From positions 1 to 27,130 of IMG/VR virus record IMGVR_UViG_3300005512_000274: a stretch of DNA of 27,130 bases. One strand, 5' to 3'. Origin of the DNA: a virus (lineage: Duplodnaviria > Caudoviricetes). How positions within the stretch are numbered: the first letter of the stretch is position 1; every line of letters starts with the position of its first letter. Position numbers and translations under genes: made by a program. The notes under the pieces are model-generated. The model saw only the letters and a list, made by a program, of their open reading frames with translations. It made no database searches and had not been told where the DNA came from. Below, in pieces: positions 1,205-23,369 of the stretch.

Positions 1205-1474
1205 CTATTCGTCTACAGGCTCCCACAAACCTGTAGTAGTATTTAGTGTATATTCGTTGCCGGGTTTTGGGGCAATAAAGGCATCAAGCTCACGATTGTA
1301 TGTGTAGCCAATGCCTGCGTAGTTCTTTCGTAGTGGACGATTTTCTGGATGTTCGTTGCCATATGTGTTATATGATGTTTGAACCCATTCACCTTCAAGT
1401 GTATTAATAAAGTCTTGTTCAGCAACAATAACTTGTGTGACTGTATCGTTTTCTATTAGTGCGTAGTGACTCAT
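1205..1474 (-). CDS. Small tail-fibre-associated/assembly protein
   Basis: MSHYALI...W.QTSYN...LRKNYAGIGYTY..ELDAFIAPKP motif, typically found right after glycine-rich fibre genes; ATGA overlap with the upstream gene. Confidence 0.7.
   Translation of the reverse strand: MSHYALIENDTVTQVIVAEQDFINTLEGEWVQTSYNTYGNEHPENRPLRKNYAGIGYTYNRELDAFIAPKPGNEYTLNTTTGLWEPVDE
1240..1245 (-). promoter_or_regulatory. Candidate TAAATA late promoter (internal to 1205-1474) for the 1160-to-TerL operon
   Basis: cTAAATA ctact A; Y-R step at +5/+6, followed by a leader hairpin and the RBS of 1160. Confidence 0.5.
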
Positions 1475-2355
1475 AGTGCGTATCTCACAATAACAATGCC
1501 TGAACCACCTTTATTGCCCGATTTTAGATCACCTGAACAATAGTAGCCACCACCACCGCCGCCGCCGGAATTAGCTAAACCAGCTGTGGCTCCAGCATTG
1601 GAATTGCCTCCGGTGCCTCCGCCACCTGTGCCACCTGTGCCAACTGTTTCGTAACACGGGCCGCCGCCACCACCACCACCAGCATAATAGTTTCCATTCA
1701 GCCATTGAACGCCATTGCCGCCATTGCCTGATGAAAATAAAGTTCCGTTTCCGCCAACAGCCCCGGCACCACCACCGCCTGCGGCTGATGCATACCCTGA
1801 ATCCAAAACTGATCCGCCGCTGTTGCCTTGACCGGGTGTTCCTGCTGCTCCGCTAAGATAACCTGCTGTGCCACCGCCACCGGATCCGCCAGTTGATGGA
1901 GGGTATCGCCCTGATCTTGACCCATACCCACCACCAACGGCAGTTAAATTAAATGCAGTTGAATTACCACCTTTATTAATTGATGATGCTGTGCTACCTG
2001 GTGCAGTGCCGCCAGCTCCAATTATAATTGAATAGTTGTTGTCGGTTAATGTGGCTATTCCGCTAAGATAGCCGCCAGCACCGCCACCGGATCCGCCTCT
2101 ATTTGAGGTATCCCCTTGGCCGCCGCCACCACCACCAGCAACAACGAGATATTCTACATCACCTGATCCAGTTACTGACAATGTGCCAGAAGTTGTAAAT
2201 GTGTGATAAGCATAACCGCCTGCTTCAGTATAGGTGCCACCAGATACGCTAAACGCTGCTTGAGCACTATAAACTTCAGTGCTACCCAAATACATCTTAG
2301 ACACAGTTTGTGTGCCTAAATGTATTGCTGCTATGTTTGAACTCCCAAGTTTCAT
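1471..2355 (-). CDS. Glycine-rich tail fibre/adhesin protein
   Basis: YHTFTTSGTL, VEYLVVAGGGGGG, YYAGGGGG and C-terminal GGSGIVIVRY motifs; N-terminal MKLGSSNI...MYLGSTEVY anchor. Confidence 0.8.
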   Translation of the reverse strand: MKLGSSNIAAIHLGTQTVSKMYLGSTEVYSAQAAFSVSGGTYTEAGGYAYHTFTTSGTLSVTGSGDVEYLVVAGGGGGGQGDTSNRGGSGGGAGGYLSGIATLTDNNYSIIIGAGGTAPGSTASSINKGGNSTAFNLTAVGGGYGSRSGRYPPSTGGSGGGGTAGYLSGAAGTPGQGNSGGSVLDSGYASAAGGGGAGAVGGNGTLFSSGNGGNGVQWLNGNYYAGGGGGGGPCYETVGTGGTGGGGTGGNSNAGATAGLANSGGGGGGGYYCSGDLKSGNKGGSGIVIVRYAL

Positions 2356-2657
2356 TCAGTAATTACGTATAATGTGTTTGTGTCTGGTGTAAGTGCATCA
2401 TATTGGGCTTGTGTAAGCGACACAATAGTGCTAACACTTGAACTTAATACACCGCCTGCGGCTGCTACATTAGTGGCATCAGTGACATCAGCACCTGCTT
2501 CAATACCAGCAAGTTTGGCACCATCACCCGCACTAAATTCCTGTTGAATAGCATTTACACTATCAGCCATAAGTTTAATATCAGCTCTGGCTAGTCCTGG
2601 ATTATCTGATCCAGCATCTAAATGTGTAGTTGAAATAGGTGTTGTGGGCCAAGTCAT
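2352..2657 (-). CDS. Short fibre adaptor/upper-fibre-like protein
   Basis: N-terminus paralogous to 11739-12188; KLAGIEAGADVT fibre repeat; C-terminal LTQAQYDAL...TLYVI motif. Confidence 0.65.
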   Translation of the reverse strand: MTWPTTPISTTHLDAGSDNPGLARADIKLMADSVNAIQQEFSAGDGAKLAGIEAGADVTDATNVAAAGGVLSSSVSTIVSLTQAQYDALTPDTNTLYVITE

Positions 2658-2660
2658 TGT

Positions 2661-2819
2661 TTATTCTCCCGAACTTTGTGTTTTTCGATATTCAGCCCAA
2701 CGAGCACTTAGTTCATTTGCTTTTTGTGTGTACACTACACTATTTGATGGTTCAGTGTTCTTAAAATAGTGTGCTAGCATTCTTAATGCGTTAATAGCTG
2801 ATGGTGTTGATAAATCCAT
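2661..2819 (-). CDS. Hypothetical 52-aa protein (not in ORF track)
   Basis: AAGGA RBS, ATG at 2819, MDLSTPSAINALRMLAHYFK...SSGE*, fills the gap between two genes exactly. Confidence 0.7.
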   Translation of the reverse strand: MDLSTPSAINALRMLAHYFKNTEPSNSVVYTQKANELSARWAEYRKTQSSGE

Positions 2820-2829
2820 ATCAGTTTCC

Positions 2830-3207
2830 TTAATCCAATGTTACGGTAATTGCACCAATCGCAATTGTAAAACTATTTGAACTATCAACTGTTTTATTTG
2901 TCATATTTCTTGCAAATAAAGCATTACCGCCAGTTGCTGCATCCATAATAGCCATTGACTTTGCAACATATTCATTTGTTGCTGTAAATGTAATTGCACC
3001 TGTATTAGCAACAACACCACCACTGGGTGCACCAAATGTTACTGCTTGACGGCTGTAACCGGCATCTGTTACTTCTGTTGCTGTGGCTGTGTCATCAATA
3101 GCATTTGTAAACAAAGCAACATACACAGTTGCAGGAGAACTGAGTGCAGTTCCGCGTAGCACATGGTTAAGTAGTGCTGTTTCTAAATAATCTGTAATAT
3201 AACTCAT
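2830..3207 (-). CDS. Small virion structural/tail-fibre-associated protein, paralog of 768-1160
   Basis: TDYLETALLNHVL, YVALFT, EVTDAGYSRQAVTF.APSGG..ANTGAITF. Confidence 0.75.
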   Translation of the reverse strand: MSYITDYLETALLNHVLRGTALSSPATVYVALFTNAIDDTATATEVTDAGYSRQAVTFGAPSGGVVANTGAITFTATNEYVAKSMAIMDAATGGNALFARNMTNKTVDSSNSFTIAIGAITVTLD

Positions 3208-4220: not shown

Positions 4221-4230
4221 TGTGTATTCC

Positions 4231-5565: not shown

Positions 5566-5598
5566 TTAATAGTCTCCGCTGGCCAGCGTTTATGCTTT

Positions 5599-5604
5599 TA
5601 TTTA
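5599..5604 (-). promoter_or_regulatory. Candidate TAAATA late promoter for the fibre cassette
   Basis: ttttgcTAAATA aaagc A; immediately after a terminator and ~33 nt before ATG 5565. Confidence 0.65.
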
Positions 5605-5606
5605 GC

Positions 5607-5698: not shown

Positions 5699-6250
5699 TT
5701 AGAACATTCGTTTTAGCCCTGTCGCTTTTTCTAGCCTACGATGTTGATCCAGTGTTTCTACTAAAACCACACGACGTAGGTCAGTTCGTATTAAATCTTC
5801 TAGTTCAATACCATATTTGCGTCGTGCTATTTTGGTAAGTCTGTGCTCGCTGGGGAATGCTCTCGCGGTTGAGTTGATGTCGCAGTGTATGCTTTCGTCT
5901 CTGCCCATTCTGGCTCCGTCAAAGCCAACAAGCCATATACGATCAAAACGGTTAAGAGCCCATAACCCAGCGTTATAACCTGATCCGTGTTCACTCGGGA
6001 TATAAAATGCTTTGTTAGCCAATCCTGGACGATCCTGAACGCTTTGATATAACTTTTCATCAGTAAAAACAATATGATCTGCTGGAACACCTTGCCAAGT
6101 TCTATTGGTAGCAATGATGTAGGTTTGTGTATTTACTGTGCCGTGCCAATCAATTAGTTTAATACTAGGCCCATTGCCTACAATAACAGCATGTGATTCA
6201 GCGTGTTCATCAGCATACTCATCAGTGGGTATGTAATAATTAATCATCAT
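5699..6250 (-). CDS. Glycosyltransferase-like protein (DUF115/MptE-like, CST-type sialyltransferase-like Rossmann fold)
   Basis: AVIVGNGPS, IIATNR, DHIVFTD, GSG..A, IWLVGFD motifs; likely start 6250/6247 overlapping the upstream stop rather than 6313. Confidence 0.6.
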   Translation of the reverse strand: MMINYYIPTDEYADEHAESHAVIVGNGPSIKLIDWHGTVNTQTYIIATNRTWQGVPADHIVFTDEKLYQSVQDRPGLANKAFYIPSEHGSGYNAGLWALNRFDRIWLVGFDGARMGRDESIHCDINSTARAFPSEHRLTKIARRKYGIELEDLIRTDLRRVVLVETLDQHRRLEKATGLKRMF

Positions 6251-6608
6251 CCTGCCATGGTAGAACAGGTTTTTCTGACAATTCAGCATCAACTGTAAGC
6301 GTGGGTTTGCCAATTAATCTGTCATACACAGTAGCAAATGCTTGTGCGTCACCAGTTTCAACAGCACGCTCTAACAGTTTAACTGCTGCATTGTTGAACA
6401 TTGCTACCCAACCAGCTGCTTGTGCTTGAACAACTTCTTCCATCATCTTTTTCATTTGACGACGCTTACGACGCTGTTCTAGATGATTAGCATACTCCTC
6501 GGGAGATAACTTTTCTAGATATTCGCGATATGGATTAATGCCTTTTTTCCACATCCGTGCTTGGAATACCGGGTTATCCTTCCATGAATTTCGTGATCGT
6601 TCACTCAT
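6240..6608 (-). CDS. terS: Probable terminase small subunit
   Basis: WKKGINPY N-terminal motif, helical core ...GD..A...YDRLIGKP, C-terminal LPW+acidic tail; no other TerS candidate next to TerL. Confidence 0.5.
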   Translation of the reverse strand: MSERSRNSWKDNPVFQARMWKKGINPYREYLEKLSPEEYANHLEQRRKRRQMKKMMEEVVQAQAAGWVAMFNNAAVKLLERAVETGDAQAFATVYDRLIGKPTLTVDAELSEKPVLPWQDDD

Positions 6609-6832: not shown

Positions 6833-7189
6833 CTATTTATTATTATTTTTTCGACTCCATCTAGTATTAGCGGCTACTCTTGCTTGTGTGCTCATATGTT
6901 CACTGCGTAGAATAACTTGACTATTTGACTGTGTCCATGGCGAGTTGGGGTCACGGCGTGTCATACAATAATCTTGTGGCTTTCTACCACGCTGATGCCA
7001 GTGATCCTGCCATAGTTCACGCCATTGTTCAAAGGTGTATTCGTCATTCCAACCTTCATGTCTAAATCTTGCTTGATTGCGCTGTTGAATAAAAGCACGA
7101 TATTGTTCATGCACTACTGGATCTGTTCCAGTTACCCATGTGTGTGGTCTTGGTCCCGGTTTGCTTCCTCTTCGTGATTTAACCTGCAT
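6833..7189 (-). CDS. HNH-like (beta-beta-alpha) endonuclease-related protein
   Basis: QARFR..W..TFEQW..LW...RGR...YCMTR.D...PW...N pattern of a phage HNH-related family; catalytic residues look degenerate. Confidence 0.5.
   Translation of the reverse strand: MQVKSRRGSKPGPRPHTWVTGTDPVVHEQYRAFIQQRNQARFRHEGWNDEYTFEQWRELWQDHWHQRGRKPQDYCMTRRDPNSPWTQSNSQVILRSEHMSTQARVAANTRWSRKNNNK
6834..6839 (-). promoter_or_regulatory. Candidate TAAATA late promoter for the 6795/terS/glycosyltransferase unit
   Basis: aaTAAATA gtttt A, overlapping the stop of the upstream gene. Confidence 0.6.
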
Positions 7190-7539: not shown

Positions 7540-9225
7540 TTAGTGATTTAAAATTTCGTTCAATTTTTCAAAACGATCGCGTATGCTTACAATGTTAGTT
7601 GGCTGTTTTTGTACTTGTAGTGGCAAGCCCATGTTGCTGCGATATTGGTCATAATCGCGATTACAAATCAACTTCCAATCAAACACAGGCGTACTGCCAC
7701 GAACGGGGTCACGAAAACAACTAACCTGCACGGAGCTAATTTCACCATCATCAATATCAATATGATAGCGTTCAGCAAGTTCGTAATCAACCATATTACG
7801 CTTAAGATATTCTTCAAATTTCTTAGCAACATTCTTATCTTTCCAACTGGTGTTTTCAGTGTGTGTTCTAACCAAATCAGCAAGCCATTTCTTTGGCATA
7901 ACACCTTGACTTTTGTATACAGGGAGTATTTCGTCAAATGCGTGAGTAATATCGTCTTTTTGCACATCAAAGCGGTTGTGATAATCTTCACCATGCAATG
8001 CGTCCAGTTTAGTTCCTAAATGCTGTTGATGCCTAACGATCAACCCACTCAGCCAATCACTAACCTTTGCTCTGTCTTTTACTAAATCACGCCATATGCC
8101 ATCGACATACTCTTTAGGATTAGCAATGCCCCGACTGCGTGCTTCTTCAAGCATAACAGTTGATGTATAAATTACCGAATAGCGTCTATCTTCTGCACTA
8201 TCAGCACCGCCACTAAGTGTAACTACACCTTTTGGATTATTGCTTAAAAATAAGAAGTTATAATTCCGATCAGCTATTGTAGCATCAATGCCTTTGCGTT
8301 CTACACGCATGTCTTCTGAACCTGTGGCTTGCTTTAGTTTGCTTGCTTCAAGTTCGCGCTCTTCCGGTTCATCATAATACAGTATAAGTGCCATTTCCCA
8401 GTTTCCGTTGAATTTGTGTAATTCTTCTTTGTGGGCTTGCACTACACACATAGGTGTAAAGACGGTTTTTAGCAGCGTAATAAAAGTATTCTTACCTGTG
8501 CCACCAGCACCACCCCCTAGATCAATATTAGGGATAGCACTTGCTAATTCTGGTTGTATATACTTCATTAATACCCAACGCTCTAGGTGCTCGATATTTT
8601 CAGGCTTGCCGCCACCTAAACAATACATCAAAAAATCAAAGCGTTCATCATATTCCTGTGAGTCGCTTGGTTGCAACCAGTATTTTTTAATAATACTCAT
8701 CTTATTGTAGGAATTTCTTTCATTCCACTTATCAATATTAAAACTTGCTGTGGTATTCAAGTAAGAACGCTTTTGTTCAATGAATAAATCAATAATGCGA
8801 TCTTCATCAGCGCCTCTGAGTTTATGTCCGCATACAGTTTCAAACCATCTAACTATTTTTCTGCCAGTTGCTGTAAAATCTTTAAACAGTGCATTATTTT
8901 GTTTTGCACCAAAATCCTTACAGTAAATGATGCGCTGATCCTGCACCAAATAGCCCATGTCATGTGATTCCATGATTGCAGAAACTATTTTTTGATCTGC
9001 TGTCCAGTGCTTGCTGTTGCGTGCTGATTGTTCTGCCTCTTCTAAATCTCTGATGTCGCGCTCGAGATCGCGAATACGATCTTCTGTTTCATAAACGGCA
9101 CCTAGAATACGAGTGCGTTCTCTTTCATCAGCAGCACGGTTTAATTCGTCTTCTAATACAAGTTTGCGTGCTTCTTCTTCGCGGCAGCCTTGCCGCAGTT
9201 CATCAATTGATAATTTCTTTGCCAT
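7540..9225 (-). CDS. Superfamily 3 (D5/NrS-1-like) replicative helicase
   Basis: Walker A GGAGGTGKNT, Walker B LILYYDE, motif C FLFLSNN, DRRY arginine finger; N-terminal coiled coil. Confidence 0.85.
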   Translation of the reverse strand: MAKKLSIDELRQGCREEEARKLVLEDELNRAADERERTRILGAVYETEDRIRDLERDIRDLEEAEQSARNSKHWTADQKIVSAIMESHDMGYLVQDQRIIYCKDFGAKQNNALFKDFTATGRKIVRWFETVCGHKLRGADEDRIIDLFIEQKRSYLNTTASFNIDKWNERNSYNKMSIIKKYWLQPSDSQEYDERFDFLMYCLGGGKPENIEHLERWVLMKYIQPELASAIPNIDLGGGAGGTGKNTFITLLKTVFTPMCVVQAHKEELHKFNGNWEMALILYYDEPEERELEASKLKQATGSEDMRVERKGIDATIADRNYNFLFLSNNPKGVVTLSGGADSAEDRRYSVIYTSTVMLEEARSRGIANPKEYVDGIWRDLVKDRAKVSDWLSGLIVRHQQHLGTKLDALHGEDYHNRFDVQKDDITHAFDEILPVYKSQGVMPKKWLADLVRTHTENTSWKDKNVAKKFEEYLKRNMVDYELAERYHIDIDDGEISSVQVSCFRDPVRGSTPVFDWKLICNRDYDQYRSNMGLPLQVQKQPTNIVSIRDRFEKLNEILNH

Positions 9226-10150
9226 ACTGGTTTCCTTTATATTTTTTATATAATTTCTCTTGTAATCTTGCTAGTGATATTTCTTCGCGTGTTTGTGACA
9301 TAAAAATCTGTTCATCATTGTAGTGCTGTCTAAGCAAATAAATCACGCTGCCCATACTGATTGTGCCATCGCCTCGCTTCCACACCGCTTGTGCATCACT
9401 GGCAGTTTTTGTTGAACTTATTTGACTGGTAATGTATACAAAATCTTCCAATCTAAAACCACCTGTCTTTAATCCCCAACCAATGTTTCTCCAAGTTTCA
9501 TACATGCCCGAATAACGCAGATTCAAACCACTTAACAGTTTAACTATGTGACTTTTTTGTTCATCATTCATTTCTGTGTATTCTTGTGTGCTAGATTCTC
9601 GCATTTGTGATTCATCATACTCGTTTATTTCACGGATTAATGCTGCCACAATACTGTCAGGTAAAAACACACTTGCTCGTAGTTCTTTGATTTGACAATC
9701 CGGAGTACCATAAAAAATACGTGTGGGATCTTTACACACAGGATCGCCGCCAAACTCTTTATTCAATGCTCGCATCAGTTTACTTGCATCGGCACCTGAT
9801 TCAACAGCGGTTTCTGTTTGAAACAGAATTCTAAATTTGTGGAGTTCGGGTGTCCAACTGGGTGTAGCGTAAAATCCGCAAGCAAATTGATTATAAAACG
9901 CATTGTCAAACAACTCCGGTATAGTCATACCCGAGTCAATGTCCACCATAAACAACTGTCTGCTACAAAAGTGCATTGCACCACGCATGCCCGAACCATC
10001 CAAATAACAACTACTTACATAACCTTCTTCAGTTATTAGTTTAAAAACATCTTCAACTGAATCTACTTCAATGTTAGTCCATCCTGTGTATGGGAATGCT
10101 TCTCCGCGTAGCCATTTCCCACAAATCTCCGGGTGTATAGACAGTTTCAT
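9203..10150 (-). CDS. Archaeo-eukaryotic primase (prim-pol) with C-terminal PriCT-2-like domain
   Basis: LFMVDID (motif I), YATPS...HKFRILF, DPVCKDPTRIFYG, C-terminal YETWRNIGWGLK...W...ISMGSVIY. Confidence 0.75.
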   Translation of the reverse strand: MKLSIHPEICGKWLRGEAFPYTGWTNIEVDSVEDVFKLITEEGYVSSCYLDGSGMRGAMHFCSRQLFMVDIDSGMTIPELFDNAFYNQFACGFYATPSWTPELHKFRILFQTETAVESGADASKLMRALNKEFGGDPVCKDPTRIFYGTPDCQIKELRASVFLPDSIVAALIREINEYDESQMRESSTQEYTEMNDEQKSHIVKLLSGLNLRYSGMYETWRNIGWGLKTGGFRLEDFVYITSQISSTKTASDAQAVWKRGDGTISMGSVIYLLRQHYNDEQIFMSQTREEISLARLQEKLYKKYKGNQYGKEIIN

Positions 10151-10431
10151 ACTCTGTCTCCATATTTTAGTTTCATAACAAGTTCTTCGACGCTGGTTTT
10201 ATTCAGCATCATAGCCCAAGCGCGGATACTAATACACTCGCCAAAAAGATAAAAACCAACTCTGCCATTAATTTTGTTAATGTAAGCCGGCCCATCTTCT
10301 CTGTGTAAAACTTTTTGTTTAATCCAATATGTGTATTCTGTTGTTTCATTTTTCCCATCCTCGGATGTAATAGCATCTCTATAAATTAATATAGGCACCA
10401 ACAATTGTCTAACCGATTCAGCATTAGTCAT
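10147..10431 (-). CDS. Hypothetical protein with a single LHREDGPA motif
   Basis: VLHREDGPAYI...FYLFG; coupled by overlaps to both neighbours. Confidence 0.7.
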   Translation of the reverse strand: MTNAESVRQLLVPILIYRDAITSEDGKNETTEYTYWIKQKVLHREDGPAYINKINGRVGFYLFGECISIRAWAMMLNKTSVEELVMKLKYGDRV

Positions 10432-11086
10432 AGTTGGCCTCCACTTCGCGTTCTAAATCTGCTAATTCATCACGCAATTGACGAACAAAACCCTGTCTGT
10501 TCGCATCATTTTCAAAATCTAAAATTAGGGCACGCAACTGCTTGATTTTATTATGGTTTTTTTGCTGTTTTTTCGCTTTTTCGTCTTTTTGCGCCTTTTT
10601 AATAGGTTCTAGTGTCTTACTAACAAAACGACGCAAATCGTTCTGTTTTCGCACTTTTTCCATTTCTAGTTCACTTTGCCATTCACGATATTTGCGGTAA
10701 CTGGTAAATCCGTGAGCACTCATATCAGCTGCTTGTGCTTGTTTTGCAGCCAACCAATGATGATCGCCTTTGCGCATATTCATAAGATTAACGCCATCTA
10801 AAATACAACGCATAATATGTTCATCTTCCTGATCTTTTGGACCTTCAGCACCATACTCAGCCACCGAAAATAATCGCCATTCAACACTTTCGGCGTCTAG
10901 TCTACGAATAAAGTCATATACCACACGTGTGTTGTCAAATTTTGATAGTGCGCGATGTTCAGTTTCTCTGCGTTCTGGTCTGGAAGTTTCGCCCACATAA
11001 AATGGATGCCATTCATCATTGATACAAGCACGCAATTCATATATAATGCCTGGTTCAAACGAATGGTCTTCAAGTCTTTTTGCCAT
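10424..11086 (-). CDS. GIY-YIG family endonuclease with C-terminal basic coiled coil
   Basis: GIIYEL...FYVGET..PERR..EH...E.EHI...NLMN; AAGGAG RBS. Confidence 0.75.
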   Translation of the reverse strand: MAKRLEDHSFEPGIIYELRACINDEWHPFYVGETSRPERRETEHRALSKFDNTRVVYDFIRRLDAESVEWRLFSVAEYGAEGPKDQEDEHIMRCILDGVNLMNMRKGDHHWLAAKQAQAADMSAHGFTSYRKYREWQSELEMEKVRKQNDLRRFVSKTLEPIKKAQKDEKAKKQQKNHNKIKQLRALILDFENDANRQGFVRQLRDELADLEREVEANYD

Positions 11087-11116: not shown

Positions 11117-11118
11117 GC

Positions 11119-11147
11119 ATTATACATAATTAGTGTATTTTTCGCAA
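11119..11147 (-). promoter_or_regulatory. Sigma70-type promoter for the replication operon
   Basis: TTGCGA-17 bp-TATAAT. Confidence 0.8.
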
Positions 11148-11158
11148 CCTTTTTAGCC

Positions 11159-11196
11159 AAAAAAAAGACCCTGCACAAAGGACTTGGAACAGGGTC
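11159..11196 (-). terminator. Intrinsic terminator of small RNA 2
   Basis: GACCCTG/CAGGGTC stem followed by T8. Confidence 0.8.
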
Positions 11197-11264
11197 AAAA
11201 GAACCAGCACTCGCTGGCATTTTTCTACCAAATAAAGGTAAACTATGTACTTGCATTCGCAAGC
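11159..11264 (-). ncRNA. Putative ~106-nt four-hairpin small RNA (sRNA2)
   Basis: TAAATA at 11270-11275, predicted +1 G at 11264 starts hairpin 1, ends in a terminator; no credible ORF. Confidence 0.6.
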
Positions 11265-11269
11265 ATGAA

Positions 11270-11275
11270 TATTTA
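11270..11275 (-). promoter_or_regulatory. Candidate TAAATA promoter of sRNA2
   Basis: aaTAAATA ttcat G, 5 nt after the preceding terminator. Confidence 0.6.
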
Positions 11276-11280
11276 TTATT

Positions 11281-11311
11281 AAAAAACCCCCTTGATGTAA
11301 TCTCGGGGGTT
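11281..11311 (-). terminator. Intrinsic terminator of small RNA 1
   Basis: AACCCCC/GGGGGTT stem with T6 tail. Confidence 0.8.
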
Positions 11312-11472
11312 AAAAATGTCACAATTTTTAATACACATATAAAGCCTACTCTATTGGAGTGAGTAGAATGTAGCAGATAACTGATAGGTAACAAATTAAG
11401 AGAATTACGAAAGTATGGCAAGTTTCGTGGTTGCTGCCCTATCCGCAGCGGGGATATATGCTATCCTGCTAC
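11281..11472 (-). ncRNA. Putative ~190-nt structured small RNA (sRNA1)
   Basis: TAAATA at 11478-11483; long-range stem 11367-11381 with 11460-11475, nested inner stems, two further hairpins, terminator. Confidence 0.6.
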
Positions 11473-11513: not shown

Positions 11514-11519
11514 TAAATA
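11514..11519 (+). promoter_or_regulatory. Candidate TAAATA promoter for the only plus-strand gene
   Basis: ttttgcgTAAATA ttcgc A ctATG; divergent from the 11478 box. Confidence 0.6.
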
Positions 11520-12188: not shown

Positions 12189-12197
12189 TTTAATTCC

Positions 12198-15095: not shown

Positions 15096-15098
15096 ATA

Positions 15099-15713
15099 TT
15101 ATCCTTGTAATCCTTTCTGTGGTCCCCAAAGTATTTCTGTTTTATTATCAATATTAGCAAATTCTGTGCCATATGATAGGCCTAGCCGATTCTTCACCCA
15201 ATTACTATAACTTTCTGCATTACTTTTAACAGCTTTAACCTGTGAAAAATTATAAAGTGTGTGTGTGCCTTGAAGTGTCAAAGAACTTCCAGTTGGTTGA
15301 CTTACATAACCACCTGATTCAATAATTCCTTTATAAACAATAACTGCATTTCCTTGTTGCACCATATCTTCATTTAAAATTACTTTGCGGAGAGTAAATT
15401 CGGCACCCACATGCCGTCCGCCCTGCACTATTTGTATTAATGCTTGACTCAATCCAGTAAATTTAAATGTAATAGATTTGCGATTTAGATTGTAATCAGT
15501 TGATGTAGTAACTAGTTCTGCGGTAAATCCGCCTGTGTGTAATACATCGACACCATCAATTCCTACATTTACATCGCGAGTAGAACTTATAAATCTAAAT
15601 CTATCTGTCCATGACTGGAGAGCTGGATCCCAAAATGTAATATCAATAGCATCAAGTATATGGAATGTTCTTGATGCTAGTTGTGTTAAGCTAGCAATAT
15701 CAAACAGCGCCAT
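15099..15713 (-). CDS. Tail tip/baseplate hub protein (gpL-like position)
   Basis: Synteny between Dit and gpJ-like genes; VYKGII and C-terminal ILWG motifs. Confidence 0.6.
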   Translation of the reverse strand: MALFDIASLTQLASRTFHILDAIDITFWDPALQSWTDRFRFISSTRDVNVGIDGVDVLHTGGFTAELVTTSTDYNLNRKSITFKFTGLSQALIQIVQGGRHVGAEFTLRKVILNEDMVQQGNAVIVYKGIIESGGYVSQPTGSSLTLQGTHTLYNFSQVKAVKSNAESYSNWVKNRLGLSYGTEFANIDNKTEILWGPQKGLQG

Positions 15714-15714
15714 G

Positions 15715-16365
15715 TTAAATATCTTCTCTTAGATTTAACGATAATTCAACAAATCCTTTAAGTCCTGTTTCGTACATCATTGCCTCGGTATTTTGAAATA
15801 CTGTCATTTCAACATTATTTACATTAATTAATACCCCGCCAGTCGGAACATCTTGTGTCAAAGGAGGTGTAATTTTAAAAGAACCAATTCCAGCACTATT
15901 TGGATTTGAAACTATTTCAGTAATCATATACACTTTTAAATGATTAGCAAAAGTTATATAATCACCCGGCTGAAACATATTTCCGTCAGTTAGCGGATTA
16001 TAATATGTAGGTGTCCAATCACTATCATACTCAATAGTGCTATCTCCAGCAGAATGTGCGCCACTGCCATAGATATCATCATTTGCTGGTCTAGGCGATA
16101 ATGTATTATAAACACCGTTTGTGTTACTATACGGTCCAAGTGGACATTTAAATTCTGTTAATCTGCCTTTTTGTGCTTCTAGGAAAGCAACAACCTGAGC
16201 TGCTTCACCGCGTGTCATTGGTGGATAACTCAATTGAATTTCAAAATATTGATCACCGTAATTTAATCTATAAACACGACCGCTGTCAGTAGCAGAAGTT
16301 GTGCCGGGATATACACTTTTTATGGTAATTGATGCAAAATCATTTGGCGTCGGTAATGTTGCCAT
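15715..16365 (-). CDS. Distal tail protein (Dit-like)
   Basis: Follows TMP; SGR, LSYPPMTR.EA...AFL...GR, GDYITF.NH.KVYM, ITPPL motifs. Confidence 0.7.
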   Translation of the reverse strand: MATLPTPNDFASITIKSVYPGTTSATDSGRVYRLNYGDQYFEIQLSYPPMTRGEAAQVVAFLEAQKGRLTEFKCPLGPYSNTNGVYNTLSPRPANDDIYGSGAHSAGDSTIEYDSDWTPTYYNPLTDGNMFQPGDYITFANHLKVYMITEIVSNPNSAGIGSFKITPPLTQDVPTGGVLINVNNVEMTVFQNTEAMMYETGLKGFVELSLNLREDI

Positions 16366-16366
16366 C

Positions 16367-18076
16367 TTATGCTCCTAATAGTTCCGGTTGTTCAGATACT
16401 GCTTGACGGATCATGCCAACAATTAATGGTTTACGCTGTTGGAGCAACTCATCAAAACCCTCGGCGTTAGTTGCACTAATATCAAACGTAATATTAACTA
16501 CTTTGCTGCCAATTTCATCATTTGGCGTTACTGTTCCTGTGCGACCTGGAGTTACAATCTCGGGGCCGCGTTCACCAACCAAGTATGGCTGATTACCTGT
16601 GATAGTGCCGCCATACATACGTCCTTGATATTTTTGTGCTTTAATTGTAGCAACCTGTGCCATACCAGCTGCAATAACACCACCCATTTGAATCCAGTTA
16701 AGAGGAAATGGTAGTTTTAGTGCTTCAGTAGCAGCAGTATATGTATTCATAATTGCTGTAGCAATATTATATGCTTGCATGGCTGCAAACATTTCTTTTG
16801 ATTGTCCGCCAAATGCGTTTCCTAAATCTTTTAATGAATCGATAGTATTTTGTTTAACTTGACCTTCAATATTTTTTTTAGCAGCAGCATATTGTTCATC
16901 GGATAATAATTTAGCACGATGGAAATCTTCTAAAGCAGTTAGTTGATCGGCATATGACATAGCAGCAGCATCTGTTGCTCCATACCAATAAGCTAGATCG
17001 GTGCCTAACATCATTTCTCTAAAAGCAACCTGAGCCGATAATAATTCTGCTTGTGCGGCAGCTTGTGCTTCTTGTTCTTGTTTTACTAGATCAACATGAG
17101 CATATGGTTGCTGTTCGGGCATAATAACACTTGTCTGACCATTTTGTGTTACGAGATCTCCCCCGGGGCCGGCTTGGTTTCTTAATTCGTCGCGGCGTTT
17201 GACTAGATATGATAATCTTGTATCGAGTTCGTCAAGCATATCAACATTATCTGATCCAGCAGCAACCATAGCTGCAATTTCTTCAGTCACATCAGCAATG
17301 CTTTTTTCAACATCCTTTAATGGGTATGATACGCCGTTAACTTTATTAGTAATAACATCGAACAGCTCAGTTAAATCATTTAATATCTCTTTAAACCATT
17401 CACTTGCACCGGATGCTGTAATAATAGTATTAGCCATTTTATCCCAAGCGACACTTAGGTTTGAAATGGTTCCGGTTAATGTTTTCATTTGATCATTAGC
17501 AGCACCAGCAAAATTAACTTCACCGATTTTGCGGAGATAGGCTTGAATATCCTCGCTGCTGTTTTTAACGGTTGTTGTTACACCATTGAAGGTAAATTCG
17601 ATTTCGTCGCCTTGCTTTTTTGCTTTAATGCCAAATTCTTTTAAGCGTTCAAATTCGCCCATGGCCGCATCAGCAACTGCCTCAACCAATTGGTCGAGAC
17701 TTTTGCCCATTGCGCTTGCGGTATTAGTATAAGACATTAATGCAGCTTCGCTTGGGTCTAAGCCTAATGTCTTTAATTTAATGAATGAATTTACTACTTC
17801 ATCTACACTTAATGGGACTTTAGTAGCAAATTGTTCTAGCTTTCCAAATGCTGATGCTGCTGCGCCAGTCGACCCTTCGATTGTTTTTAATCTAACTTGT
17901 AGATTTTCAAATCTTGCTGCGAGAGATACAACCGATTGCCCAGCGGCACCAGCACGCTGGGCAAGGTTAATCATACTATCTAATTTAACAGCAGTTAAAC
18001 TTTTGTTTAACCTATCAATTGCTGCAACAGCTTTGCTAGTATCTGCATTAACTCTTACGGTGGCGTCTGCTGACAT
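16367..18076 (-). CDS. Tape measure protein
   Basis: Ala-rich helical; tape-measure domain (FA.KVPLSVDEV...GEFERLKEFGI); C-terminal GG...YLVGERGPE. Confidence 0.9.
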   Translation of the reverse strand: MSADATVRVNADTSKAVAAIDRLNKSLTAVKLDSMINLAQRAGAAGQSVVSLAARFENLQVRLKTIEGSTGAAASAFGKLEQFATKVPLSVDEVVNSFIKLKTLGLDPSEAALMSYTNTASAMGKSLDQLVEAVADAAMGEFERLKEFGIKAKKQGDEIEFTFNGVTTTVKNSSEDIQAYLRKIGEVNFAGAANDQMKTLTGTISNLSVAWDKMANTIITASGASEWFKEILNDLTELFDVITNKVNGVSYPLKDVEKSIADVTEEIAAMVAAGSDNVDMLDELDTRLSYLVKRRDELRNQAGPGGDLVTQNGQTSVIMPEQQPYAHVDLVKQEQEAQAAAQAELLSAQVAFREMMLGTDLAYWYGATDAAAMSYADQLTALEDFHRAKLLSDEQYAAAKKNIEGQVKQNTIDSLKDLGNAFGGQSKEMFAAMQAYNIATAIMNTYTAATEALKLPFPLNWIQMGGVIAAGMAQVATIKAQKYQGRMYGGTITGNQPYLVGERGPEIVTPGRTGTVTPNDEIGSKVVNITFDISATNAEGFDELLQQRKPLIVGMIRQAVSEQPELLGA

Positions 18077-18240
18077 TTTGATATGCTTCCTTTTTCATTT
18101 CAGCTTCCTTCTTAAAAAAAGCAAGCCATAGTCTAAGTTCGAACGCTGTTATCTTTTCTTGCCCTTCTGCTAATGTTAATCCAAGTTCTCTACAAACCTG
18201 CATTAACATAAAGATATCAGCGTTCTCAGTTAGTTTTTTT
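18048..18240 (-). CDS. -1 frameshift extension of tail assembly chaperone (gpGT-like)
   Basis: GAA AAA AAC TAA slippery site; the -1 frame stays open 61 codons (LTENADIFMLMQVCRELGLT...ELRLWLAFFKKE...KS*) into the TMP start. Confidence 0.8.
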
Positions 18241-18568
18241 CGAGGTCCTCGTTTGACATAATGCCTGCATTAATTACACCAGCAACCTGGATCACAACTT
18301 TTGGATCTGCTTCATTAAGCAATGTTGCACGATCTGCATCATTAAACAAACGCTTACCGTCACCGTCACGGGCTTTAACTAGAAGACTTTCAACCAGTGC
18401 TTCCATTGATTTTCCTTGCCCCTGTAAATTCATAATACGCATTTCGTCTTTGATTGGGTAAGTTGGATAAAAATAGATATCCATATCCCACTTAGCACAA
18501 TGGTATTTCTGTAAATTATTTTCTACTGCCTTATTAAAGTGATTTCTTACTTTATCAATAGCACTCAT
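18230..18568 (-). CDS. Tail assembly chaperone (gpG-like)
   Basis: Directly upstream of TMP; D.DGKRLF...D motif; ends LEKN on the slippery sequence. Confidence 0.85.
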   Translation of the reverse strand: MSAIDKVRNHFNKAVENNLQKYHCAKWDMDIYFYPTYPIKDEMRIMNLQGQGKSMEALVESLLVKARDGDGKRLFNDADRATLLNEADPKVVIQVAGVINAGIMSNEDLEKN

Positions 18569-18936
18569 CTAAATTTCCTTTGTATTAATGTTTCAAGTTT
18601 TTTTAACAACCCATACTTTTCAGTAACATATCTGCTGTATGGCACTAGGTTAATTAATTCAGCTTTGTGTCCTCTGCCCTTAATTTTCCATCCATTGCGC
18701 ATGGTTCCTGTTTGTTTTGGTGTCATTGGACGAACTTGTTCGCGTCCATATTTCATCACACTATCAACTTTTTGATCTATCGCACGCTGCATCTTAGTAT
18801 GTAAGCTAGGATTAATATCTACGCGAGTACGAACTCGTATCGGTGAATCACCTAGATTAGGTAATTCGGGCTGCTCAGAACGACCAATCGCCCGAACAAC
18901 CCGAAATGCTACAAACCTTAATACGGCTGGTAACAT
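18565..18936 (-). CDS. HK97 gp10-like tail completion protein
   Basis: TPKQTGTMRNGW...NLVPYSRYV motif; basic. Confidence 0.7.
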   Translation of the reverse strand: MLPAVLRFVAFRVVRAIGRSEQPELPNLGDSPIRVRTRVDINPSLHTKMQRAIDQKVDSVMKYGREQVRPMTPKQTGTMRNGWKIKGRGHKAELINLVPYSRYVTEKYGLLKKLETLIQRKFR

Positions 18937-18941
18937 TACCG

Positions 18942-19334
18942 TTAGGTAGCAGTACCAAGTGTGACACTACCAGTGCCTTGGAATGAAATGCTTGCTTCAA
19001 CCATGCCTTCCATGGTTGAGTTTACACTAATTCCAGTAACAATGATATTGCCGCTCACTTTTGGATTGCCTGAGCCGCTGTCGCTTGGATAGCCGACAAA
19101 TGCTACTTGGCCGCTGGTGATAGCATCTTCGATGTTACCAACAACCGTTGTATCATAATAAATGTCAGCACTTCCAGACCATTCCTTAACGCCTTGCTTG
19201 TAAGTACGGAAATCATCAGTCATGACAGTTGATTCAACTGTGTTAACTGTATAATCCATACTCCATGAGCGTAAGTTAGCAACTGCATCGCCGTCGATTG
19301 TGATCGATCCGTCTTGTCCAGTATATGTGGCCAC
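18942..19334 (-). CDS. Major tail tube protein
   Basis: GTG start with AGGAG; GVKEWSGS, ASISFQGTG motifs. Confidence 0.85.
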   Translation of the reverse strand: MATYTGQDGSITIDGDAVANLRSWSMDYTVNTVESTVMTDDFRTYKQGVKEWSGSADIYYDTTVVGNIEDAITSGQVAFVGYPSDSGSGNPKVSGNIIVTGISVNSTMEGMVEASISFQGTGSVTLGTAT

Positions 19335-19335
19335 T

Positions 19336-19488
19336 TTAAATCTCCTGTTCTTCTGAAGTTTCTAATATTACGGGTTCAGAAATATCGTTTACATCAACAA
19401 CTGTGTAGCCAGCATTTAGCCAAGCATCCAGCATGTTTTCAAACACAAACATTTCTCTTTCACCGTTAGTTAATTTGTATTGTTTCAC
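19336..19488 (-). CDS. Hypothetical 50-aa acidic protein (not in ORF track)
   Basis: GTGA overlap with the terminator gene; MKQYKLTNGERE...WLNAGYTVV...EQEI*; fills the gap. Confidence 0.65.
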   Translation of the reverse strand: MKQYKLTNGEREMFVFENMLDAWLNAGYTVVDVNDISEPVILETSEEQEI

Positions 19489-19916
19489 GCAATACCCCTT
19501 TGATATACATATTGAACTGTTACTACTACAATAACCAATCCAAATGGTTCTACTACATCAAAATCTACATTAATATCTGTTACTTGTGTTGACCTTGCCA
19601 TGCCGTTGCGTGTTCTATCTGCATCGAGTACTTCCTCAATACGTTCAATAACATCATTACGCTGACTGTCAATATCAAATCCATTAACCCAAGCGGTTAA
19701 TTGAACTTCTAGTGTAGATTCTCGTAATCCACCAATTCCGTTTTGTGTAATATCACTGCGCACTTCGTTTGCAGTACTAACATACACAGCGGGAAATTGC
19801 TGTCTGCTTAATTGGGCTGGATCAAACGGACGGCGTGTAACCAATCCAAATCGTGGATCTTCTGCATTTTCTAATACAGCAATGATATCCTGCACAATTA
19901 ATTCACGAGCACTCAT
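19485..19916 (-). CDS. Tail terminator protein
   Basis: MSARELIV, FPAVYV...E, IEEVLDADRTRNG motifs; position before the tail tube. Confidence 0.7.
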   Translation of the reverse strand: MSARELIVQDIIAVLENAEDPRFGLVTRRPFDPAQLSRQQFPAVYVSTANEVRSDITQNGIGGLRESTLEVQLTAWVNGFDIDSQRNDVIERIEEVLDADRTRNGMARSTQVTDINVDFDVVEPFGLVIVVVTVQYVYQRGIA

Positions 19917-20344
19917 CTAACAAGTCTCTGTGTGTATAATGGTGATTTTTCGCCTTGATTAATTTCTACAGCACCATCATTGTCGGCGTCGTATTCAACA
20001 CCATCATTGATTACTGCTGTAAATTCTTCTTCGTAGCGACTTTTATAGTAAGCCATCATCTTTTCCCAGCGATCACCGTCAGGCGAGAACTGAGTTAATT
20101 TCGGTAGTATGTAATAGGAAAGACAATGGAATACGGCGGCTCTCGTAAATTGACTTTCTGTAATTAAAGTGGTATCCATTTCAATTCCAGTATATAAGTT
20201 TGCTTTACGAGGCCACCATTCCGTTTTGAGCCGACGGACGATATCTCCACGAGTCTTTGCGTGTTCCGCAGAGAAGTCTTGGATTCCATAATTGTATAAA
20301 TCTGGAAAATATTCTAGGATATCGAGGTCTGTGCTCATTGTCAT
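19913..20344 (-). CDS. Head-tail adaptor protein
   Basis: Immediately after MCP; helical; YY..RY..EF...GVEYD.DNDG motif. Confidence 0.65.
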   Translation of the reverse strand: MTMSTDLDILEYFPDLYNYGIQDFSAEHAKTRGDIVRRLKTEWWPRKANLYTGIEMDTTLITESQFTRAAVFHCLSYYILPKLTQFSPDGDRWEKMMAYYKSRYEEEFTAVINDGVEYDADNDGAVEINQGEKSPLYTQRLVR

Positions 20345-20358
20345 TTGCTAGTCCTCTA

Positions 20359-21165
20359 TTATGCTGAGTAGTCTAGGTAGATACCACGAGTGGCGTCGAT
20401 CAGACCAACTGCTGCGTGTAGGCTAGCGACAACATCGAAACCAACAGCTTCAGCACGGCGTGCAACTTCGAGGTCGATGTTCTTCTGCATGCCAATACGC
20501 ATTGCGTCCTGACCGAATACAGCAATACCTTCTGACAGGTAGCTGCTAACAAACATTGGAACACCAGCGATAGAACCTAATAGGCCTGAACGAAGTGCAG
20601 CACCCTGGAACATGTCGCCACCAGCGTATGCAGTAGAACCAATTGCGCTCATTACTGTACCGTATAGGTCAGCAGAAACAACACCATAAAGCTGGCCCAT
20701 TTCTTTAGCACCACGGATTGCACCAACAGCACCAAATACATCGTCAAGTACTGAACTACCACCAGTTGTGCCACTGGTTAAAGTTGCTAATACAGTTGCA
20801 ACATCAGCGTCAAATGAAGCTGATACTGAGTTACCTAGTACACGACCAATTTCACTTGGATCAACATTACCGAGGTCACGAACAACTGAACGAGCTGCGT
20901 ATAGGTTAGAAACGATAGTGTTCTTAGTATCAGCTGATAGAACTGTATCTAAATCAACACCAGGTGCTGCTTCAGCAGTTAATTTAGTAGCACTTACTGC
21001 TGCTAATTCTGGAACCTGTAGAACACCGTTTGGTGCATTAACTACAGGAATAAGTTGACCACCCAGGAACAATGAATTTTCGTGGGCAGCATAGATTGTT
21101 GCTGCTTTGGCAGGAACAAAAAGCGCATCGGTGTTAAAACCGGAAGTATATGCTGAATTTGCCAT
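20359..21165 (-). CDS. Major capsid protein (compact HK97 fold)
   Basis: After scaffold; strong AAGGAG RBS; GSIAGVPMFVSS P-domain motif, D..V. Confidence 0.8.
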   Translation of the reverse strand: MANSAYTSGFNTDALFVPAKAATIYAAHENSLFLGGQLIPVVNAPNGVLQVPELAAVSATKLTAEAAPGVDLDTVLSADTKNTIVSNLYAARSVVRDLGNVDPSEIGRVLGNSVSASFDADVATVLATLTSGTTGGSSVLDDVFGAVGAIRGAKEMGQLYGVVSADLYGTVMSAIGSTAYAGGDMFQGAALRSGLLGSIAGVPMFVSSYLSEGIAVFGQDAMRIGMQKNIDLEVARRAEAVGFDVVASLHAAVGLIDATRGIYLDYSA

Positions 21166-21189
21166 TATAATCTCCTTAAATCTGGCGTA

Positions 21190-21861
21190 TTAAATCAAGC
21201 CCTTTGAACGGGCTTCTTTGTATTTCTGTCTATCTTGTGGATTAGTTAAATCTAAATTAGATAGATCGAAACCGGTGTTTCCACGAACGGCTGTATTACT
21301 AACCGTTCCTGAGCCTTTTGGAGTTGCAGCAACAAAGTGTGGGTTTGCTTGTAAGAATTCATTTACCAAACTTTTAATATCAAATACATCACCTGAATCA
21401 GTGTAACGAACTTGATCATTAGTCGGATCAATCACTTCTACTGAGCCACTATCGCCTAAACGCACCTGATCTTTGAGTAGTCTTACAACTTGATCTGGAT
21501 TAACAGCTTTTAAGCTGCTGGCTGCGTTAAGTAATGCTCCATCTACTTTGATGCTTTTCAACTCCGATTGCAATTGATTGATTACAGAATCTTTCTTCTC
21601 CGCAGTTTCTTTAAGAATAGCCTCAAATTGACCGCGTTTCTTCTGATCTTCAATCTTACGGGCTTCATCAGCCTCGGTTAGTTGCTGATAATGATCGAGA
21701 TCAATGCCTGAATACTTTGATTCGTATTTCTTGCGTTCTCTTTCAACTCTATCTGCAACAATGCGGTTTACATCTTCTTGAGTAAACCCTTTTGCCTGGC
21801 TTTCAGCGGCTTGGCCAGTTACCTCTTGATTTTCCTGATTTGTAATGGTTTCAGTTTCCAT
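21190..21861 (-). CDS. Capsid scaffolding protein
   Basis: FTQEDVNRIVADRVERE motif, coiled coil, FL.ANPHF...GSG. Confidence 0.85.
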   Translation of the reverse strand: METETITNQENQEVTGQAAESQAKGFTQEDVNRIVADRVERERKKYESKYSGIDLDHYQQLTEADEARKIEDQKKRGQFEAILKETAEKKDSVINQLQSELKSIKVDGALLNAASSLKAVNPDQVVRLLKDQVRLGDSGSVEVIDPTNDQVRYTDSGDVFDIKSLVNEFLQANPHFVAATPKGSGTVSNTAVRGNTGFDLSNLDLTNPQDRQKYKEARSKGLI

Positions 21862-21922
21862 GTGTCTTTTAACCTCTTTTGTGAGTAAAACCTGCCTTAC
21901 GCAGTAATAAGTTTTAGTATAT

Positions 21923-21928
21923 TATTTA
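21923..21928 (-). promoter_or_regulatory. Candidate TAAATA late promoter for scaffold/capsid/tail operon
   Basis: aaTAAATAatatac in the gap before the scaffold gene. Confidence 0.65.
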
Positions 21929-21943
21929 TTGTTTTTTCAAACA

Positions 21944-21997
21944 TCAACGATACTTACGCCCGCCCTTACCGGGCGTCTTTGATTTCTTTTTATACAT
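21944..21997 (-). CDS. 17-aa basic micropeptide MYKKKSKTPGKGGRKYR
   Basis: AGGAGA RBS 6 nt before ATG, overlapping the portal stop. Confidence 0.5.
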   Translation of the reverse strand: MYKKKSKTPGKGGRKYR

Positions 21998-23345
21998 TAA
22001 GGTTCTCCTGTGTGGGTGATTCCATGATCAACTCCATTTCTTCGTAATCGTCAGTTAACAATTCAGCAACACGACGAGCAATAACAGTCTGCAAGCCACG
22101 ATTTCCCGGCAATAGTTCTTTTGCAGTCTTAAACGAGTTCATTTCATTTTGTGTGTCTCGAGTATTGTATGAGTTTGGATATTCGATTTTTCCGTCCCAC
22201 ATAATGCCTAACCAATCACACATAATCTGCCAAATCTGTTCTTCAGCAAGTTGTAATTGATCTGCTTTTTTAGCCAAACGAGCCCCTAATAATCTAAATT
22301 CTGTGTCTAATGCAACGCCACTTAATGTGCGAGATTCTAATACACGAATACTGCCTACATTGGCCAGTCTATTAATAGCATCAACTGTATCGCTAATGTT
22401 AGCACGAATAGCATCCAAACTACCTGAGTTAGGCTGTAACAAATATGGACGCAAGCCTGGATCCATGTTTTCAGGCATAGTGATAATAGAGCCTGCGCCT
22501 GCACTTGCAGTAACATCTTCGGTTTTAACGAGGCTGGGATGGTTTGAAATGCGGATTAACTGAGCAATCTCAGAATTTTGGTTGTATATGCTGCGTTGCA
22601 AATCTGCAATGCCTTCAATTGCACTAATTCCCACACCTTTGATGTGTGAACGAGAATCATACAAACACACAGCAGGAATATATCCTAAACCATTGGGTGT
22701 TTCATTGACTAACGAGCTGGTATTGGTGTTTTCATCGACCATGTATGTGGCGATCATTTCAGGTGTAAACACCTTGATAACATATTCTGTGTTTTCTACA
22801 TTTTCAATAACCTTTAGATAGGTTAAAGCATATGCACCATTGTATTGCCTAGTCCATTTCCAATCTAATACCATTAATGGATTAAACAAGCACAAGTATG
22901 GGCGCACACCCATTTCATATTCATCAGCAAGTGTGCTAGCATCAACTGCTGGTTTATCGGCGATGATCCAAGCACACCCAAAAATAGCACTGATGCGATC
23001 TGCTTCACTCATAAAATCGTTAAAAGAACGATCATCATAATCAGCATCTTCTAGGATAGCATCAAGTATTGGATTGTTTGCTAGCGATCCAAAATCTCTT
23101 ACTGGTGGTTCAGCAAATAAGAAACTGTTATAGATATCTACAATACTTTGGCAATGTAAATCGACTGGTGTTTCCATAGCACGTTGCAAATAATCTTGTT
23201 CGGTTTCGTATATATAACGAGTTAGATAACCGCCTTCTTTATATGATTTGCCACCACGATATGAATCATACAGGAACTTATAATTGTCCTTGTTTCGATT
23301 ATATTCTGGATTTGCTTGTAATATATCTTCTGCTGAATTTTCCAT
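21990..23345 (-). CDS. Portal protein (SPP1 gp6-like)
   Basis: 451 aa after TerL; Y..R, A.IFGCAWII.D, LGYIPAV, G.SAI..IADLQ, SGVAL motifs. Confidence 0.9.
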   Translation of the reverse strand: MENSAEDILQANPEYNRNKDNYKFLYDSYRGGKSYKEGGYLTRYIYETEQDYLQRAMETPVDLHCQSIVDIYNSFLFAEPPVRDFGSLANNPILDAILEDADYDDRSFNDFMSEADRISAIFGCAWIIADKPAVDASTLADEYEMGVRPYLCLFNPLMVLDWKWTRQYNGAYALTYLKVIENVENTEYVIKVFTPEMIATYMVDENTNTSSLVNETPNGLGYIPAVCLYDSRSHIKGVGISAIEGIADLQRSIYNQNSEIAQLIRISNHPSLVKTEDVTASAGAGSIITMPENMDPGLRPYLLQPNSGSLDAIRANISDTVDAINRLANVGSIRVLESRTLSGVALDTEFRLLGARLAKKADQLQLAEEQIWQIMCDWLGIMWDGKIEYPNSYNTRDTQNEMNSFKTAKELLPGNRGLQTVIARRVAELLTDDYEEMELIMESPTQENLNV

Positions 23346-23363
23346 TATGGAATCCTTGTTTCT

Positions 23364-23369
23364 TATTTA
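23364..23369 (-). promoter_or_regulatory. Candidate TAAATA late promoter for portal
   Basis: cTAAATAagaaacAAGGAttccataATG, overlapping the terL stop. Confidence 0.55.

Follow-up and report, generated by a model that had tools for sequence, protein, structure and literature searches.

TAAATA boxes of the T4 late type in a small siphophage genome without a recognisable gp55: a candidate satellite of T4-like phages

Nine TAAATA boxes in a closed siphophage genome

The virus record IMGVR_UViG_3300005512_000274 (Caudoviricetes) is a small siphophage genome in which a hexamer resembling the late promoter of phage T4, TAAATA, stands ahead of inferred transcription units. The stretch analysed, hereafter the window, is the whole record of 27,130 nucleotides. 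It carries a 123-nt terminal repeat and is 100% complete, in agreement with the original prediction, made from the letters of this stretch, that the phage genome is closed. Library scans of 40 open reading frames (ORFs) of the window identified a full siphophage set, i.e. terminase, portal, scaffold, capsid, adaptor, terminator, major tail, chaperones, tape measure, distal tail and hub, together with several fibres, a primase, a helicase and two nuclease-like ORFs. No family match to a sigma factor, polymerase, integrase, repressor or endolysin was found among these 40 ORFs. Every gene but one lies on the minus strand. Nine TAAATA boxes, one of them the full TATAAATA, are found at the positions and on the strands first reported:

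1240-1245, minus strand: TAAATA box at the head of the gp80-like/fibre/gp77/TerL unit, which crosses the circular junction; same site in 9 of 10 relatives
5599-5604, minus strand: TAAATA box behind a terminator, at the head of the fibre unit 5565-1205; kept in the close relative L189
5617-5641, minus strand: intrinsic terminator ahead of box 5599 (predicted hairpin)
6834-6839, minus strand: TAAATA box before ORF 6795 and the gene resembling a terminase small subunit (TerS); kept in L189
11109-11116, minus strand: full TATAAATA box, 23 nt ahead of the replication unit; kept in L189
11270-11275, minus strand: TAAATA box behind the terminator 11311-11285; TAAGTA in L189
11478-11483, minus strand: TAAATA box, divergent from box 11514
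11514-11519, plus strand: TAAATA box 8 nt ahead of the sole plus-strand gene
21923-21928, minus strand: TAAATA box at the head of the scaffold-capsid-tail unit; the most conserved box site of the family
23364-23369, minus strand: TAAATA box over the stop of the terminase large subunit (TerL), 19 nt ahead of portal; found in 18 of 35 relatives

Several details of the original prediction were confirmed. The box changes strand with the plus-strand gene, a pyrimidine-purine step falls at +5/+6 in exactly 7 of the 9 boxes, and two boxes follow terminators, box 5599 behind the hairpin 5641-5617 and box 11270 behind the hairpin 11311-11285 with its U-run. As to the claim that boxes head nearly every transcription unit, each unit inferred from gene layout has a box at its head; of the automatically called operon heads, 4 of 12 carry one (p=0.056). 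The boxes must also be read with some caution. Apart from the substitution of box 11270 in L189, boxes 1240, 6834 and 23364 sit in the last codons or the stop of the upstream gene, and boxes 11478 and 11270 head structured non-coding stretches rather than ORFs. The genome holds 19 TAAATA matches in total against 37 expected, and the remaining 10 are inside genes. In shuffles of the window alone, the 5 intergenic minus-strand boxes compare with a mean of 1.6, and 85 of 5000 shuffles reach that number, so that enrichment over a shuffled background is present but modest. As single-genome enrichment is weak, the significance of the boxes rests on evidence from the family, the spread of the pattern through which had been overlooked in the single-genome account.

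Box position is conserved across the family

Capsid searches yielded 178 loci, 68 of them non-redundant (752 kb). A sense TAAATA at most 130 nt from the scaffold start was present in 50 of 52 non-redundant loci, with 8.8 expected and 5 found in antisense. An independent set derived from portal gave the scaffold box in 37 of 38 cases, and in the DSL-LC06 clade, a separate capsid clade, it was present in 8 of 8 loci (1.1 expected). In DSL-LC06 itself, boxes stood at 7 of 16 operon heads. Elsewhere in the family, boxes precede portal (18/35), a tail unit (31/34) and the fibre unit (9/10), and genes internal to the units are nearly free of them: adaptor 0/62, major tail 0/17, distal tail 1/31 and capsid 4/62. 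The family loci share ancestry, so these counts are of non-independent events; with portal identities to the window of about 33-49%, passive retention of a non-coding hexamer is nonetheless unlikely. By raw box density the family (2.2 per 10 kb) is not separable from the HTVC phages, which are AT-rich (2.5-2.9 per 10 kb), and positional, strand and shuffle tests were needed. The family is broad, comprising 760 capsid clusters at 90% identity, and the window's own capsid protein had no match among 50,697 GenBank phage records.

Cultured relatives lack the box signal and do not avoid the hexamer

By terminase, the closest cultured phages are the HTVC111P-type pelagiphages (TerL about 50%), the virion module of which (terminase, portal, scaffold, capsid and tail) is homologous to that of the family by shared clusters. 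These phages were purified via dilution to extinction (excerpt of 10.1101/2019.12.14.876532). They are autonomous, encode a DnaD-domain protein and lysins, the latter annotated in HTVC026P and HTVC111P, and give no box signal: at the same GC content as the family, their lineage has the scaffold box in 4 of 34 loci, with 5.6 expected. No homologues of their DnaD-domain protein or lysin were found in 280 loci. In a quick capsid tree, the HTVC111P type and the family form separate capsid clades; the HTVC111P type is placed as sister to the DSL-LC06 clade, a placement that joins long branches, for which reason the tree is not read as an order of events. Three loci of the HTVC111P type (L024:13360-13452, L210 and L260) carry TTGACA-17-TAAATC ahead of scaffold, a sigma70-like promoter without the -7T and one base off the family box.

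The hexamer was also examined within genes, by comparing observed TAAATA counts on each strand with those expected from synonymous-codon shuffles. Family genes contain 52 copies against 173 expected in sense and 56 against 209 in antisense, and the genes of the window 3 against 7 and 1 against 19. Genes of HTVC111P-type phages show no depletion (29/31 sense, 43/34 antisense), nor do those of environmental phages of this type (161/151 and 253/209). The gp55-encoding Mosig is depleted (30/56 sense, 57/80 antisense), and stretches of T4 and S-SM1 are weakly so. This avoidance suggests that a lone hexamer would suffice to fire in the cells where the family phages are expressed.

The boxes have the register of T4 late promoters

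The T4-family late promoter, used by gp55, gp33 and gp45, consists of a single invariant AT box, roughly one turn ahead of the start, with no -35 element (excerpt of PMC2988020); the family boxes are likewise lone AT boxes, and that of S-PM2 reads NATAAATA (excerpt of PMC2984593). The initial observation that the boxes share no -35 element extends to the family, where a match was found in 13 of 164 cases against 6-10 at control spacings. The distance from box to ATG is either 3-6 nt, with a peak at 5, or at least 15 nt, and never 7-14 nt. A ribosome-binding site was present in none of 23 short-spacing cases and in 95 of 114 long-spacing cases. The two classes fit a start at +6, which would fall on the ATG or far enough upstream to include a ribosome-binding site. 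The same 5-nt peak (25/105) was seen in 67 environmental gp55-bearing loci, where it may come partly from one orthologous site. A pyrimidine-purine step at +5/+6 was found in 81 of 164 family boxes, compared with 32-64 at neighbouring steps. Among 815 upstream windows the exact TAAATA occurs 158 times, its one-base variants 20-87 times and variants of its last base 20-43 times, a pattern of selection at all six positions. These sequence patterns give good support to the view that each box acts as a lone promoter of the -10 type, in the register of T4 late promoters.

An archaeal host, in which the boxes would be TATA boxes for the TATA-binding protein, would also account for the missing -35 element, and TAAATA resembles the archaeal TATA core. 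Archaeal transcription starts about 25 nt downstream of the TATA box, which would lose both the ATGs at 4-5 nt and any ribosome-binding site 15-19 nt away. Only 9 of 164 boxes have TT in front of them, the genomes carry sigma70 promoters of bacterial type and Pelagibacter is the host of the nearest cultured relatives, all of which makes this explanation close to negligible.

The boxes might instead be read by a sigma factor of the host, be it sigma70 together with CarD, acting at a -10 element without the -7T, or an unknown alternative sigma. Promoters without the -7T are common in Alphaproteobacteria, TAAATA can be read as TA-AAT-A, and the TTGACA-17-TAAATC of some HTVC111P-type phages lies ahead of scaffold. 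The leaderless peak lies at 4-5 nt, whereas sigma70 leaderless spacing is 6-7 nt. Most promoters of R. sphaeroides lack the -7T, yet CarD-activated rRNA promoters keep a TTG (excerpt of PMC7703639), and the family boxes have no -35 element. Selection at all six positions, with 20-43 last-base variants against 158 exact boxes, also speaks against a host sigma, as do the cultured SAR11 siphophages, which show neither box enrichment nor avoidance. Textbook sigma70 promoters (TTGACA-TATAAT/TATACT) occur in the same family genomes; the main sigma of the host thus looks ordinary and does not explain the box. We consider a host sigma as the reader unlikely.

No reader of the box is recognised in the window or its family

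The main genes of the window, on which the search for a reader was based, are as follows:

6240-6608, minus strand: probable TerS (C-terminal LPW motif common to the TerS proteins of the family)
7540-9225, minus strand: primase-associated helicase PF19263 (library scans)
9203-10150, minus strand: primase-like protein with PriCT-2 domain (library scans)
10424-11086, minus strand: GIY-YIG-like nuclease, which opens the replication unit (weak match, E 0.003)
11528-11731, plus strand: C4 zinc-finger protein, the sole plus-strand gene; resembles a family seen in many relatives
11739-21861, minus strand: morphogenesis unit, scaffold to hub (library scans)
21990-23345, minus strand: portal (library scans)
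23367-24602, minus strand: TerL (library scans)

The claim that the window encodes no gp55, gp45 or RNA polymerase held in profile searches and library scans. A profile of 78 gp55 sequences gave a best E of 4.2 in 26,790 frames of 198 loci; the same profile built without T4 recovers T4 gp55 at 8e-28. By profile comparison, 29 window ORFs matched gp55 at no more than 1.2% probability, and ORF 6240-6608, which is most likely TerS by its motif, has no similarity to gp55. None of 13 virus records with a completeness of 92-100%, of which five have terminal repeats, contains the gp55 family (phrog_234). A two-sequence gp45 profile found nothing, and gp33 gave no match in library scans, the only search made for it. 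Subsets of the relatives' non-virion ORFs (135 + 76 against PHROGs, 135 + 28 against Pfam; fibres and the shortest ORFs left out) matched TerS, homing-type nucleases, methyl- and glycosyltransferases and XhlA-like small proteins, and no polymerase, primase, sigma or endolysin was found among them. Two nucleases of relatives have weak matches to the sigma-4 helix-turn-helix. The primase-helicase was found only in the window's lineage within the family, and the helicase family is present in 1 of 5 terminal-repeat genomes and absent from the other four.

An autonomous phage could nevertheless encode a factor of its own that escapes recognition, sigma-like or a remodeller of host RNA polymerase, which would read TAAATA and could be expressed from early sigma70 promoters. 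Many small ORFs have no family, and C4 zinc-finger genes resembling the plus-strand gene of the window occur in many members. That zinc-finger family (537 representatives at 50% identity, without a named family) is, however, often itself found directly behind a TAAATA box; its small size leaves no room for a sigma-2 domain, and it has no match. The helical family c24 is confidently folded (pLDDT 90) with no sigma or gp59 match, and it is absent from the window. Among the non-virion genes found, only TerS is nearly universal across the family genomes, and the 29 window ORFs stay at or below the 1.2% mentioned above. We regard a factor of the phage's own as rather unlikely, and since no recognisable one is encoded, a gp55-family reader from a co-infecting phage appears likely.

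Two candidates were rejected in the course of this search. The zinc-finger protein as an Ogr-like activator had no Ogr or sigma family match, and its low-confidence model (pLDDT 68) no fold match; c24 as gp59 or sigma, a weak lead from an atlas, was not supported by fold and profile searches. The c24 genes (L005:5234-5662 and relatives) lie on 22-29 kb contigs, and no fold match beyond their own family was found. Their recurring C-terminal (F/Y)xx(L/I/V)FE tail presumably recalls sliding-clamp-binding motifs and is a putative one. GIY-YIG nucleases of the SegE type, named after a T4 homing endonuclease, recur among the relatives, at L102:12655-13062, L105:7310-7717, L144:312-719 and L186:2163-2591.

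A proposed cycle that depends on a T4-like helper

Two further features of the window bear on how its genes would be expressed and copied:

11119-11147, minus strand: host sigma70-type early promoter TTGCGA-17-TATAAT, in tandem with late box 11109; kept in L189
7392-7524, strand not assigned: ATGTTAC iteron-like repeats, direct and inverted, 5-6 copies, after the helicase gene

The sigma70 promoter lies directly ahead of box 11109 and had been overlooked in the first account of the promoters. Tandem early and late promoters ahead of replication genes, as in the window, are found in RB49 and S-PM2 (excerpt of PMC2984593). The repeats are likely the replication origin.

We propose that, after entry, host sigma70 would fire the early promoter only, for primase, helicase and nuclease. 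In a cell that also holds a T4-like phage, the host RNA polymerase core, directed by gp55 together with gp33 and the gp45 clamp of that phage, would begin transcripts some 6 nt past each box, and the units for head, tail and packaging would thereby be expressed; the small phage would then assemble its own virion and exit through the lysis of the helper. As gp55 alone on core polymerase gives basal transcription (excerpt of PMC2988020), such a satellite need not use the replisome of its helper, which fits the primase-helicase and iteron-like origin of the window. The analysis shows the motif, its position, register and avoidance, and the gene inventory; promoter activity, gp55 as reader and borrowed lysis are proposals, as is helper dependence, which is suggested by promoter anatomy and gene absence.

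The original prediction of a phage that borrows its late transcription is favoured by the lone -10 box in T4 register, the lack of gp55 and the helper-free cultured relatives without the signal, while the need for a helper is inferred. With somewhat better than even confidence, we read the window as a complete small siphophage with conserved T4-type late boxes, avoided within genes, that a gp55-family sigma from a co-infecting T4-superfamily phage would read. For the stronger proposal we see even chances: that the 26-31 kb aquatic siphophages of this widespread family are obligate parasites of T4-like phages which mimic the late promoter and mostly leave replication and lysis to the helper, and that their genes are purged of boxes because they are always expressed in T4-infected cells.

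A number of observations weigh against a helper. A capsid profile found no holder among 185,579 cell genomes and hence no direct link to a helper, and a portal profile led to two short contigs of metagenome-assembled genomes (MAGs) that are uninformative on this point. Neither a host nor a co-infected cell was found in these searches, and no RNA run was among the sequencing runs listed as holders. We identified no trait that would attach the phage to a helper, and obligate co-infection is a costly requirement. The window has its own primase, helicase and sigma70 promoter, and many small ORFs have no assigned family. Polymerase is also lacking in the autonomous HTVC111P-type phages, so its lack is no proof. 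Some other AT-rich hexamers are depleted in family genes too, if less than TAAATA (z -3 to -5 vs -10 to -13). The flanks of the boxes are not a close match to T4 or Mosig (position -1 is A at 0.54 or C at 0.22, and A or C prevails at +1), for which reason no helper is named.

The primase, helicase, origin and sigma70 promoter of the window would also suit facultative piracy, in which a slow solo cycle proceeds by read-through from the early promoter along the co-directional genes, nearly all on one strand, and the boxes serve only to exploit or survive co-infection. A terminator separates the early genes from the 5599 unit, antiterminator and endolysin are not recognised in the window, and no replication gene is recognised in most complete relatives. 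We hold this to be very unlikely.

Two leads to a helper were dropped. A MAG (G019) considered as evidence of co-infection contains gp55 contigs, but it has 13 terminase-family matches, and there is no box ahead of scaffold on contig L372 of this MAG. ORF 1205-1474 has homologues spread over many phage types and is no pointer to a helper.

Comparison with known phages and satellites

The family resembles marine gp55-bearing loci in the 5-nt leaderless spacing and Mosig in the avoidance of the hexamer within genes. Unlike in the T4 family, the promoters are found in 26-31 kb siphophages without gp55 or gp45, and their flanks are looser ([A/C]TAAATA[A/C]); the window does not encode the set of gp55, gp45, replisome and contractile tail that marks the T4 superfamily. 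DSL-LC06, of the proposed 'Nanhuiviridae', shares the boxes and a homologous virion module with the window. It was published as an orphan family, and the words 'promoter' and 'satellite' do not occur in the main text of its paper (PMC10611076).

Virophages share the late promoter motif of their helper. Like the virophages Mavirus and Sputnik, which make their own virion and need the machinery of a larger virus (excerpt of PMC11389934), the window encodes its own virion proteins; virophages differ in having eukaryotic hosts, non-tailed virions and proven dependence, where dependence here is inferred. The phage rather probably works like a virophage and is a candidate member of the satellite class; it would, if so, be a bacterial parallel to virophages.

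Late promoters of P4 respond to the P2 protein Ogr. Expression triggered by a helper, as proposed here, is known from P4, phage-inducible chromosomal islands (PICI), capsid-forming PICI (cf-PICI) and PICI-like elements (PLE); those elements are integrative and take capsids or tails, whereas the window has a complete virion and no recognised integrase or repressor, and none of the 185,579 cell genomes searched holds its capsid gene. Aci01-2-Phanie is reportedly a tail borrower. The Streptomyces satellites MiniFlayer, MulchRoom and Ando are small and helper-dependent and have capsid genes of their own, without replication (PMC10690885) or lysis genes (PMC13587820); Ando and MulchRoom borrow tails, whereas phages of the window's family have genes for an entire tail, tape measure, distal tail and hub included. 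The excerpts of the two papers do not report that these satellites take a late sigma from their helpers, and no description of a gp55-dependent satellite was found in the literature searched, the coverage of which excludes most subscription papers. The known satellites compared borrow capsids, tails, replication or lysis, and a borrowed late sigma factor would be a new mode of parasitism.

If the helper-dependent reading is true, it could explain why the family remains uncultured. T4-like myophages account for much of the killing of aquatic bacteria, and a common hyperparasite would alter the burst sizes of these myophages as well as the way in which viromes are read. The box ahead of scaffold combined with avoidance in genes offers a cheap screen for helper dependence in small phage genomes.

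Small RNAs, related genomes and other genes

Two structured small RNAs are predicted on the minus strand:

11158-11264, minus strand: predicted structured small RNA behind box 11270, terminator at end (z -4.4)
11278-11472, minus strand: predicted structured small RNA behind box 11478 (z -2.7)

Both end in a terminator and neither has an Rfam match. The stretch 11158-11472 is better conserved in L189 than the adjoining plus-strand gene. The replication block of L189 is 85-91% identical to that of the window and its tail differs, with a distal tail about 32% identical to the DSL-LC06 type, a module swap. The same helicase (45-49%) was found in L190, L191 and L192 amid unrelated gene sets (Dps-like ferritin, Prim-Pol, methyltransferase). 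These three also carry TAAATA boxes, some of which overlap TATAAT, and the strategy may therefore have emerged repeatedly.

The frame from 749 runs over the terminal repeat to 26809 and forms one fibre-like gene of 315 codons. ORF 5699-6313 has a weak sialyltransferase match, and genes for glycosyltransferase, FkbM methyltransferase and sugar metabolism are present in L025, G002, G013, G016 and G018.

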